Below, one piece after another: positions 24,051-26,823 of a stretch of 64,000 nt of DNA (position 1 is the first letter of the stretch; the number at the start of each line of letters is the position of its first letter). The translations under genes and the position numbers were made by a program. The stretch spans positions 567,791-631,790 of the forward strand of contig NW_019217787.1 of the NCBI RefSeq assembly GCF_002571385.2. Reading direction: 5' to 3'. Source of the stretch: Stylophora pistillata. Lineage: Eukaryota. The notes below the pieces were generated by a model. It was not told where the DNA came from, made no database searches, and saw only the letters and a list, made by a program, of their open reading frames with translations.

Positions 24051-26823
24051 ATGTCTGAAGTGACAGTCCTTGATTATGGAGCTGGAAATATTCAAAGTCT
24101 CATCAATGCTCTAAAACGTCTTGGTTACAATGTAAAATTTGTGAAGGATCCCAAGGATATCCTAAATGCAAAAAGGCTGATCTTCCCAGGTGTTGGAGCC
24201 TTTGGAAGTGCAATGGCTCTCCTTGAAAGCAGGGGTTATGTGGAACCACTTAAGATGTATGTCCAACAAGACAAGCCATATTTAGGAATTTGTCTAGGCC
24301 TTCAGACATTGTGTGATGGCAGTGAAGAGTCTCCAGGTACAAAAGGCTTATCTGTGATACCTGCTACTGTAATGCAATTCAATAAGGCTAAAGGTCTTGC
24401 TGTTCCACATATGGGCTGGAATGGACTGAAGCTTCATAAGGCATCAGCCCTGTTCCAAACTGGTTTCTCCAAGGAAGAAAAAGTCTACTTTGTCCACTCA
24501 TATGCTTTATATTCACAAAGCAAGGAGATTGATGATTGGGTTCTTGCTACCACTGATTATGGAGAGGAGTTTGTCAGCATTGTGCAAAAGGGAAATATTG
24601 TTGCTACACAGTTCCACCCAGAGAAAAGTGGAGAAATAGGAATTAGTATAATCAAGAGCTTCTTGGAAAGTTTCCCAATCAGTGCAAAGCCTGCAAGGGT
24701 TCCTTACCAACTGCCCAATGCCAGTGAGCCAACACAACTTGGTCATCGCATCATTGCTTGTCTTGATGTCCGCAGTAATGATCAAGGTGACCTTGTAGTC
24801 ACCAAAGGTGAACAATATGATGTGCGTGAACAATCTATTACAGAGAATATTCATTCTGTCACACAAAGTAAGGGTGCTGTGAGAAACCTTGGGAAACCTG
24901 TAGAGTTGGCACGTAGGTATTTCAAGGAAGGAGCAGATGAAATAGTATTTTTGAATATTACAAGCTTCAAAAACTGCCCTCTCCATGATATTCCAATGCT
25001 AGAGGTACTTAGGCAAGCATCTCAAAATATTTTTGTCCCGCTCACCATTGGGGGTGGTATTCGTGAGATACATGCCCCAAGCAAAGCTGGTGACCAAACT
25101 AAGATGAAGTGTTACTCTGCTGTGGAAGTGGCAGCTGAATACTTCAGATCTGGTAATTTTACCTAACTTTTCAGTGCTTAAAAGTGAGATTGGTACAGTA
25201 ACTAGTTTTTAATGTTAGCTATTAATTATTGATTTCACCAAAGTCTCAGGTGGTGTAAGTGTATATCACAACTACAGTCAAATGTCTTTACAACAGCCAA
25301 CCACAGACAGAACTATGTGCCAAGATCATTTTAAAGCTGACTAACTTTGATTATTATTTGATATGTTGCAAACAAGAAAATTATGGCTGTCAATATCAGA
25401 TTCATACTAAGTTATGATTTTCATTGCTGATGGTCCTCTGAAGAGGGATGTACAGGTGGCCCTTAGGGGGAGGTTCAGGTGGAAATGACTTTTCAACAGC
25501 AGAGTTAAGGAATTAAGAAGTTAAAGTAACTTCCCACCCAAAATTTGCTATCTGTTGTCTCAGAATGCTCACATTTGTAAAGTGTTTTAACTCGTAAAGT
25601 GCTCCAGAAGGTATCCTCTTTAATGCAAGGTGACCGTACCTTTACCTTAGTTCCAACCTCTGGTTACATATCTACAGAAGACATCCTGTAAACGAGAATA
25701 TTAGTCTCTTCCACCTTCATTGCTTGTTAAATTACTGGATCAAAACAGTGATTAACATAAGACTACTGTACTATTTTGACAGGAGCAGACAAGGTGTCCA
25801 TCGGCAGTGATGCAGTGTATGCAGCTGAGAACTACATATCATCTGGTGGGATAGCAACTGGTCAAACCTCTATTGAAACAATAGCAGCTGCATATGGAAG
25901 TCAGGCAGTAGTTATCTCAGTTGACCCTAAGCGAGTTTTTGTTCCATCCCCGAAAGCTGTGCAACATCATGTGATTCATACAAACTACCCTGGTCCATCA
26001 GGAGAAGAATTCTGTTGGTACCAGTGCACAGTGAAAGGAGGGCGAGAGTTGCGAGGTATTGGAGTGTATGAAATGGTGCAGGCTTGTGAAGCCCTTGGTG
26101 CAGGAGAAATTATGCTTAACAGTATTGACAGGGATGGGTAAGTAACAAATTGAATTTAAATCAAGTCTCATATAATGTAACTTGAGATTCATAACATTAT
26201 TGCAAAATAGTAGTCGAACCTTCATTTGGTGTAAAGCACTGCTTGGATATGAGGCTTACATTCAAGGACTCTGTGAGAGGATCTCTAGTAGCAATCAGGC
26301 TTTGGACACAAGGAAACTTTAGCAAATTTGTGAGAACAGTAGATTGAAAAGGGGCTAGCTTTCAATAAGTAACTCATGTCCATGCTTTGTTCATGTGGTA
26401 TGAAAACCACTGTCAGTGACATAATTATTTTGATTGGCTGAAGTTGAGCAGGTGAAAATCTCAAAGTAAGCTGTGTTGACTTGAATTGACTCAATGCAGT
26501 CCTGGAAACAGTCTCAGGTAAATGTAGTATGATCAAGAAGCTGGTTCTGTTGACTAATCATTTTCTTTGAATTCATTTTGTTTAGAACTAATAGTGGTTA
26601 TGATCTTGAACTGGTTACCATGGTTAAAGAAGCTGTTGGTATTCCAGTGATTGCTTCCAGTGGTGCTGGTAATGTTGATCACTTCTCTGACGTGTTCCAA
26701 GGTGCACATGCTGATGCAGCACTAGCAGCAGGAATATTTCACCGAAACACTGTTACAATCAGGGCTGTTAAAGAGCATTTGTTGAGTGAAGGGATCCCTG
26801 TCAGAGTCAACACAGACTGCTAA
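24051..26823 (+). CDS. HIS7: Imidazole glycerol phosphate synthase, fused HisH glutaminase-HisF cyclase (fungal/plant HIS7 type), 564 aa, 3 coding exons
   Basis: Exons 24051-25152, 25783-26137, 26586-26823 (1695 nt, in frame). GATase motifs [19 protein letters not shown] (catalytic Cys), VPHMGWN, YFVHSY, QFHPEKS (His-x-Glu). Cyclase motifs [71 protein letters not shown]. Confidence 0.95.

Follow-up and report, generated by a model that had tools for sequence, protein, structure and literature searches.

The 64,000-nt stretch of Stylophora pistillata DNA that was analysed here (hereafter the window) carries a single-copy, spliced nuclear HIS7 gene, which is predicted to encode an active imidazole glycerol phosphate (IGP) synthase in the histidine pathway of the coral. 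The gene has likely come down by vertical descent from an ancestor shared by all animals. Taken as a whole, we give this reading a probability of roughly 0.92. The gene model, the splicing, the identity of the protein, its catalytic residues, the matches to partner genes and the position in the tree come from the present analysis, and the function is derived from knowledge of the family.

Gene model and predicted protein

The coding sequence of HIS7 consists of three parts (24051-25152, 1102 nt; 25783-26137, 355 nt; 26586-26823, 238 nt; 1695 nt in total), which upon splicing form an open reading frame of 564 amino acids with 0 internal stops. The parts are separated by two GT-AG introns, one of 630 nt in phase 1 (at codon G368) and one of 448 nt in phase 2 (at codon G486). 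The product is 100% identical (564/564 amino acids) to an annotated S. pistillata protein (P0121, i.e. XP_022785437.1 / PFX34426.1), and a PF00977 profile search of the 397.6-Mb S. pistillata genome returned 1 locus, which is the HIS7 of the window. An earlier, sequence-only reading had described a complete fused HisH-HisF of 564 amino acids with a catalytic triad and the aspartates of the ACLDV and ISVDP motifs, and this is indeed what the spliced frame encodes. Its two GT-AG coding introns are likewise confirmed by RNA contigs, but it missed the 5'-UTR exon and a third intron of 1525 nt (Table 1).

Table 1 Features of the HIS7 locus and its neighbours (positions in the window)
Feature	Position	Strand	Remarks
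ATP5F1A (mitochondrial ATP synthase alpha), upstream neighbour	13804..22315	-	exon 1 22213-22315, ATG 22272
Likely shared bidirectional promoter ATP5F1A/HIS7	22316..22368		contig ends; CpG-rich; TCACGTGA E-box at 22339
HIS7 5'-UTR exon	22369..22491	+	joint 22491>24017 in runs X2, X7; start = furthest contig end; ATG-TGA start-stop element inside
HIS7 5'-UTR intron, 1525 nt	22492..24016	+	GT-AG; RNA-run contigs
HIS7 first coding exon	24017..25152	+	ATG 24051; whole glutaminase domain and first part of cyclase barrel
HisH-type class I glutamine amidotransferase domain (aa 4-206)	24060..24668	+	TIGR01855, PF00117
HIS7 exon 1 codons	C81 24291, H189 24615, E191 24621, D239 24765	+	from translation
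HIS7 coding intron 1, 630 nt	25153..25782	+	GT-AG; removed in 6/6 RNA runs
HIS7 second coding exon	25783..26137	+	middle part of cyclase; D415 codon at 25923
HIS7 coding intron 2, 448 nt	26138..26585	+	GT-AG; removed in 5/6 RNA runs
HIS7 last exon	26586..28439	+	C-terminus of cyclase; stop 26821-26823; 3' UTR at least 1.6 kb; X13 contig 26585-28439
MITE-like high-copy element in HIS7 3' UTR	26997..27211		20-nt perfect terminal inverted repeats; depth spike
PGGT1B (geranylgeranyl transferase type I beta), downstream neighbour	31826..38171	-	span of Pfam-matched exons; best PDB match GGTase-I beta

Both halves of the fusion are recognised by dedicated models. In Pfam, GATase (PF00117) falls in exon 1 and His_biosynth extends across all three coding exons, while the hisH model (TIGR01855) scores 211.7 bits over residues 4-206 (curated cut-off 105.4) and the hisF model (TIGR00735) 302.5 bits over residues 230-559 of the same polypeptide (curated cut-off 294.55). 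The WbuZ, AglZ/HisF2 and HisA models score far under their cut-offs.

The glutaminase triad (C81, H189 and E191) and the cyclase aspartates D239 (in ACLDV) and D415 (in ISVDP) are all kept. Among aligned homologues (389 of 532 stored proteins, kept after filtering for length and identity), C81 is found in 382/382, H189 in 386/386 and E191 in 385/386, and the residue of a HisF chain that aligns with D239 is D11. Moreover, 14 of 15 aligned proteins have identical residues at 18 functional-site positions, among which are those of the PGVG strand and of the charged residues at the base of the barrel. The choice of these sites follows general knowledge of the family, apart from the triad, the two aspartates (Table S24, see below) and D11/D130; the roles of the PGVG strand, the charged barrel-base residues and the gate residues, as well as the yeast His7 numbering, are presumably those of the yeast literature. 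In Thermotoga maritima HisF, D11 acts as general acid and D130 as general base (PMC11350729, in the part covered), and the active-site residue types that Table S24 of PMC6214176 gives for the Arabidopsis enzyme are the types kept at C81, H189, E191, D239 and D415.

Transcription, promoter and genomic context

Of the 24 sequencing runs listed, 20 (from 8 studies) hold at least half of the words of the window. Splicing was followed in contigs from six RNA or presumed-RNA runs of six studies (two on record as polyA RNA, four guessed to be RNA) and from a DNA-like run (X15), where such contigs give presence, and neither expression level nor strand. Coding intron 1 is spliced out in all six RNA runs and intron 2 in five of them; in run X1 none of the listed contigs crosses intron 2, and some contigs are intronic. 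Both introns are covered unspliced in the DNA-like run. An additional GT-AG joint (22491>24017), present in 2 of 4 runs (X2 and X7), gives HIS7 a total of three introns. Three AATAAA signals lie at 28448, 28457 and 28466.

The first exon of ATP5F1A and the 5'-UTR exon of HIS7 are arranged head-to-head, with the latter beginning at or before position 22369. The observed/expected ratio of CpG is 0.96 at 22100-22600, 0.18 in the coding sequence of HIS7 and 0.56 in the whole window. It is likely that ATP5F1A and HIS7 have one promoter in common, for which we infer the function from the features given in Table 1, and expression of HIS7 would then be of the housekeeping type. The CpG depletion within HIS7 is as expected of a long-resident gene, and suggests that it may be a methylated host gene body.

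The matched exons of ATP synthase alpha lie on the minus strand at 13.8-19.5 kb, and its best PDB matches are animal mitochondrial F1-alpha chains (~ 199-200 bits, versus 174 bits for a lower group of chains, which we take to be yeast). There are no N gaps between 6837 and 35858, contigs from other runs span 22487-24193 as well as 24164-28439, and in one RNA contig ATP5F1A exon 1 is joined to 23144-23700, which lies within the UTR intron of HIS7. Given the absence of gaps, the bridging contigs and the RNA contig that connects the two genes, a chimeric assembly at HIS7 is very unlikely. The concern of the sequence-only reading that the gene might not be physically linked to ATP5F1A and PGGT1B is therefore not borne out, as two contigs of other samples, one from RNA and one DNA-like, connect ATP5F1A exon 1, the 5'-UTR intron and HIS7. 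Its description of a locus contiguous with metazoan genes (ATP5F1A and PGGT1B, without a gap) and with host MITEs (a MITE-like high-copy element with 20-nt terminal inverted repeats lies in the 3' UTR of HIS7) holds.

Histidine pathway and predicted function

A complete histidine pathway in robust corals was described by Ying et al. 2018 (PMC6214176), who called the full pathway unique to robust corals among animals. In Table S22 of that paper Stylophora is a robust coral, and K01663 and all seven genes are marked present for both its genome and its transcriptome (Tables S22 and S23). In the parts of the paper covered here, K01663 has three exons in Fungia, Goniastrea and Nematostella, the synteny around it is shown together with complex corals that do not have the gene, HIS1 has 14-16 exons in other robust corals, and trees are given for K00765 and K01693 only, with ancestry being inferred in Scleractinia. 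The authors could not directly show the function of the pathway. With an annotated RefSeq protein and K01663 marked present in these tables, the S. pistillata HIS7 is already catalogued and published, so that the locus itself is not new, as the sequence-only reading had surmised in pointing to a published robust-coral pathway.

That reading had also proposed a genome search for equivalents of HIS1-HIS6, which returned matches to all six other pathway genes, on six other scaffolds of the S. pistillata genome, the match to HIS1 being weak. HIS4 is represented by exons for PRA-CH and for histidinol dehydrogenase, both on the same strand of scaffold C190, HIS6 by hisA_euk exons on C590, HIS2 by a match to a PHP-family phosphatase on C369, and HIS3 by an intronless IGPD of 199 amino acids on C43, which is the one partner for which a full reading frame was built. 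For HIS5 and HIS1 the matches are partial exon matches only: the hisC-like exons of HIS5, on C531, do not follow the expected order and may be tandem copies, and HIS1 consists of a HisG_C match on C54 (E 7.7e-5) with two weak hisG exons (E 0.011 and 0.031) upstream, in the right order and on the right strand. No match was found in the genome with the PF01634 (HisG) profile, likely because of many small exons, given the exon number of HIS1 in other robust corals.

The family converts PRFAR and glutamine to IGP and AICAR with channelling of ammonia (PMC1963479, in the part covered). In the coral protein, the N-terminal domain would hydrolyse glutamine by means of the C81-H189-E191 triad, after which the ammonia would be channelled through the (beta/alpha)8 barrel between the domains. 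With D239 as the putative general acid and D415 as the putative general base, PRFAR would be converted to imidazole glycerol phosphate and AICAR, i.e. step 5 of histidine synthesis, from which AICAR would re-enter purine synthesis.

Phylogeny and intron positions

Named animal homologues were found in Oculina, Desmophyllum and Orbicella (80-82% identity), in Nematostella and in two sponges, namely Sycon ciliatum (XP_065178576.1, 60% identity, on a 50.5-Mb contig) and Corticium candelabrum (XP_062516461.1, on a 6.7-Mb contig). The sequence-only reading had called the fused form the fungal/plant type, which is correct only in part, since fused homologues are also present in choanoflagellates, Capsaspora, Amoebidium, an oomycete (Phytophthora) and many prokaryotes, besides fungi and green algae.

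Trees were built from the top matches of four homologue searches, with FastTree on 220 and on 101 rows and with IQ-TREE (LG+C20+F+G4) on 60, 33 and 42 hand-picked rows, from which near-duplicates, the majority of the prokaryotes and long rows (e.g. P0032 and P0396) were excluded. P0014 (of which only the first 288 amino acids matched) was dropped beforehand, as were P0011 and P0024, for which full-length named members of their clusters were used instead. Many of the rows in the animal clade are fragments that cover the first exon, none of the HIS7 trees contains an identified Symbiodiniaceae, land-plant or ascomycete row, and the root was placed by choice on the prokaryotes (plus green algae in some trees).

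The animal sequences (corals, Nematostella, Sycon, Corticium and unnamed kin) form one clade, with a support of 98 in the 220-row FastTree and of 100/99, 100/98 and 100/99 in the 60-, 33- and 42-row trees, respectively. This clade shares a branch with fungi and unicellular holozoans (98 for 220 rows, and 100/97, 100/98 and 99/95 for 60, 33 and 42 rows), which in the 42-row tree also contains one unnamed row. In AU tests, placement of the animals inside fungi (with Mucoromycota) was rejected (p 0.00044), as was that of corals with fungi (two named corals and one unnamed coral-clade row; p 4e-6) and that of animals with non-opisthokont eukaryotes (p 0.00033); animals with prokaryotes were rejected more weakly (p 0.019), and animals with the choanoflagellate clade were not rejected (p 0.11). 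Holozoa were not resolved by IQ-TREE, with choanoflagellates outside animals plus fungi in the 60-row tree (82/60) and a polytomy in the 42-row tree. FastTree recovered Holozoa at 94 with 101 rows, where the inclusion of long rows lowered the support of the animal clade to 89, with the unnamed long row P0396 as its sister. The identity of best hits was discarded as a guide to origin, since prokaryotic fused HisHF ranks above fungi and holozoans in BLAST lists, and not in the trees.

The position of the clade among the opisthokonts, together with the rejected donors, suggests that HIS7 probably dates from the ancestor of animals, and not only from that of stony corals. The phylogeny that had been proposed as a check yielded a single animal clade on the opisthokont side, with fungal and algal donors rejected for the rows sampled.

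Intron positions outside the window were deduced from the ends of open reading frames in 36 aligned proteins, 25 of which are N-terminal frames with an early end, as expected of unspliced first exons. In 20 of the 25 the break lies at G368, the site of HIS7 intron 1, and these include coral-clade rows and deeper unnamed rows (P0017-P0021 and P0113); it lies at Q408 in three rows of the Corticium clade and near E359 in two of the Sycon clade. The Corticium-cluster fragment P0195 ends at G486, the position of HIS7 intron 2. A search of metagenome contigs for sponge HIS7 DNA with the Corticium protein yielded 79 loci, all 50-61% identical and without a sign of a long intron, and no sponge locus. 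As none of the 25 frames breaks before codon 359, the length of the first coding exon appears to be an old trait shared across the animals, and not the mark of a recent transfer. The differing positions of the first intron are no positive proof of descent. The sequence-only reading had noted that the intron-poor structure bears on ancestral retention versus gene transfer; a transfer is not supported by it, given that three exons have been published for the gene elsewhere, that the long first exon is apparently animal-wide and that the tree favours vertical descent.

Alternative explanations

The histidine pathway is normally absent from animals and coral assemblies can contain symbiont DNA, which makes it conceivable that HIS7 stems from a symbiont or contaminant (Symbiodiniaceae, a fungus or a bacterium) and was mis-assembled onto coral DNA. 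Bacterial His genes have, in fact, been flagged in the assemblies of Fungia and Nematostella (Ying et al., PMC6214176). For HIS7 the chance of this is nevertheless negligible, as the sequence is gap-free from 6837 to 35858 and bridged by contigs of other runs, the GT-AG introns are removed in polyA RNA, orthologues at 80-82% identity exist in Oculina, Orbicella and Desmophyllum, and conserved synteny has been published (PMC6214176). HIS7 could also be a genuine host gene that was acquired long ago, i.e. by horizontal transfer of a prokaryotic fused hisHF, or of a fungal or algal gene, into an early animal or coral ancestor, with the few introns being gained later. Fused prokaryotic HisHF proteins, at 56-61% identity, match the coral protein with scores at least as high as those of fungi and holozoans, all 25 truncated animal-clade frames are unbroken for at least the first 359 codons, intron 1 apparently lies at the differing sites given above (G368 on the coral side), a prokaryotic donor is rejected only at p 0.019, and Holozoa are not resolved. 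Still, such a transfer has just a slight chance of being correct, since the animal clade is on the opisthokont side (99/95 to 100/97), fungal and algal donors are rejected (p < 0.001), and the same fused gene is present in choanoflagellates, Capsaspora and Amoebidium, so that inheritance does not need an extra event. In addition, the Corticium-cluster fragment ends exactly at the coral intron 2 site, and in the view of Fani et al. 2007 (PMC1963479, in the part covered) the bacterial fusions are derived from eukaryotes.

A genuine and ancestral HIS7 might also serve glutamine or nucleotide metabolism in S. pistillata, and no longer de novo histidine synthesis. The histidine role of HIS7 is a prediction, HIS1 and HIS5 are represented by partial exon matches, and Nematostella retains HisHF without most of the pathway, for which Ying et al. 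suggested such a role (PMC6214176). However, both cyclase aspartates are present in Stylophora, whereas Nematostella has Asn at the first, and all seven genes are marked present for Stylophora (Tables S22 and S23, PMC6214176) and have matches here, which leaves a role outside histidine synthesis a very slim chance. A vertically inherited HIS7 in a histidine pathway is hence the reading that we retain.

Nematostella, sponges and the animal ancestor

At the position of D239, Asp is found in 385 of the 388 homologues that cover it, and the three exceptions are the Nematostella records, all three of which (3/3) have Asn. The glutaminase triad of Nematostella HisHF is intact, and its isoform X1 is extended at the N-terminus. 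These features fit a putative cyclase-dead orphan; Ying et al. guessed that Nematostella HisHF has another purpose (PMC6214176, in the part covered). In the HIS7 proteins of both Sycon and Corticium, all five catalytic residues (5/5) are kept.

It may tentatively be proposed, at somewhat less than even odds, that the last common ancestor of animals was able to make histidine and that this capacity survived in robust corals and in calcareous and homoscleromorph sponges, having been lost piecemeal elsewhere and not in a single event on the animal stem, with orphans such as Nematostella HisHF being repurposed as glutaminases; the sponge evidence for such an ancestral pathway consists of the one gene HIS7. 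In the parts of the literature covered, Richter et al. 2018 (PMC6040629) report histidine-pathway gene families as lost on the animal stem, and according to a 2026 preprint (10.64898/2026.09.29.755549) no enzymes of histidine biosynthesis are encoded by the demosponge Amphimedon. No report of a sponge HIS7 and no animal HIS7 tree were found in open-licence literature listings, which is weak evidence of absence, and a whole-word search of the part of PMC12923814 covered gave no passage on corals, sponges or cnidarians. The Sycon record is already named hisHF in EukProt.

By itself the locus changes nothing, and the side results on sponges and Nematostella are more useful. A vertically inherited HIS7 with intact catalytic residues in Sycon and Corticium indicates that at least this step persisted beyond the origin of animals in two classes of sponges, and which animals still make histidine is a cheap and direct question for existing sponge and cnidarian genomes. 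As regards coral nutrition, robust corals may be independent of symbionts or food for their histidine, a point made by Ying et al. (PMC6214176) that is biochemically a prediction.

Comparison with known systems

The protein encoded in the window is the same as XP_022785437.1 / PFX34426.1 (K01663), which carries the database label 'chloroplastic-like' but has no N-terminal extension before the glutaminase domain (the 1jvn alignment runs from residue 3). It agrees with the published robust-coral pathway (PMC6214176, in the parts covered) in belonging to K01663, in its three coding exons, in the scattering of the pathway genes over scaffolds and in the intronless IGPD, whereas the K01663 tree presented here also covers two sponges and traces the gene back to the base of the animals. 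With Saccharomyces cerevisiae His7 (PDB 1jvn, 1ox4-1ox6) it has in common the order of glutaminase and then cyclase, being collinear over residues 3-561 (E 2.5e-180 for 1jvn), and the triad and both cyclase aspartate motifs align; animals and fungi are, however, separate and fully supported clades, and nesting within fungi is rejected. The HisH-HisF of T. maritima (PDB 1gpw, 1thf and 7ac8) has the same two activities (which for the coral are predicted), D11 corresponding to D239 and D130 to D415 by motif and Table S24, but there they reside on two separate polypeptides, without the insertions that are typical of fused HisHF (PMC1963479, in the part covered). Finally, the fused prokaryotic HisHF of Desulfobacterota, some Gammaproteobacteria and Archaeoglobi resembles the coral protein in its fusion and at 56-61% identity, yet is separated from the opisthokonts by a branch with a support of 99/96 to 100/98.

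HIS7 in sponges and other animals

All five catalytic residues of HIS7 are present in two sponge classes, as represented by Sycon ciliatum (protein P0026) and Corticium candelabrum (P0194), and in the gene trees the sponge and cnidarian proteins form one clade, with records P0022, P0023, P0025 and P0062 being kin of the sponge ones. Six further homologous proteins (P0017-P0021 and P0113, the last on a long branch) fall inside the clade of animals, though not among its named robust corals, so the named records understate how widely HIS7 occurs in animals. These six retain the first catalytic Asp of the cyclase and share an ORF break (as read from the ORF ends) at G368, the codon that is split by coding intron 1 of the Stylophora gene.

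The Asp in question (D239 in Stylophora) is replaced by Asn in Nematostella vectensis (P0361, P0531 and P0532; XP_001626403, XP_032229860), these being the only exceptions (3/388) among the homologues covering the site, while the glutaminase triad is kept intact. Judging from these residues, the orphan Nematostella HisHF is likely to be cyclase-dead and repurposed. Isoform X1 carries an N-terminal extension that appears basic by eye, which may be a targeting peptide.

The ATP5F1A/HIS7 region and other features of the window

ATP5F1A and HIS7 are arranged head-to-head (window 22213-22491), with observed transcript ends ~50-140 nt apart, and the stretch between them is CpG-rich. The 5' UTR of HIS7 contains an ATG-TGA start-stop element. 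In one of four sequencing runs (X2), a contig links window 23144-23700 (minus strand) to ATP5F1A exon 1 over a CT..AC gap, and it is possible that this segment is an upstream ATP5F1A UTR exon inside the 5'-UTR intron of HIS7 (i.e. that the two transcripts overlap in antisense).

Repeats, coding pieces and sequence motif in the window
Feature	Window position	Remark
Reverse-transcriptase fragment	4694-5236	PF00078
Weak sulfotransferase match, under cut-off	9283-9756	PF13469
Two large inverted-repeat elements of high copy number, with arms of 128 nt and 412 nt	20407-21909	ATP5F1A first intron
E-box TCACGTGA	22339	In CpG-rich ATP5F1A/HIS7 stretch
LITAF-like zinc ribbon exon	40243-40446	PF10601

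Comparison with other histidine-pathway loci and known fusions

Elsewhere in the Stylophora genome, the intronless IGPD gene (HIS3; L010:1444-2043, scaffold C43) has a CpG o/e of 0.93 in its Pfam-matched part, compared to 0.18 for HIS7, so that of this pair only HIS7 is depleted. The hisC-like exons at C531:167910-170330 (loci L027 and L028) lie out of profile order (279-348, then 136-218 and 218-286), which suggests tandem copies; for Fungia, Table S18 of Ying et al. 2018 (PMC6214176) likewise lists two partial, adjoining K00817 models.

Prokaryotic HisHF fusions are common, too, and occur in Desulfobacterota, in some Gammaproteobacteria and in Archaeoglobi (P0030, P0034, P0039, P0100, P0218 and P0250; loci L031-L109), a range far wider than the two deltaproteobacteria that Fani et al. 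2007 (PMC1963479) knew of.
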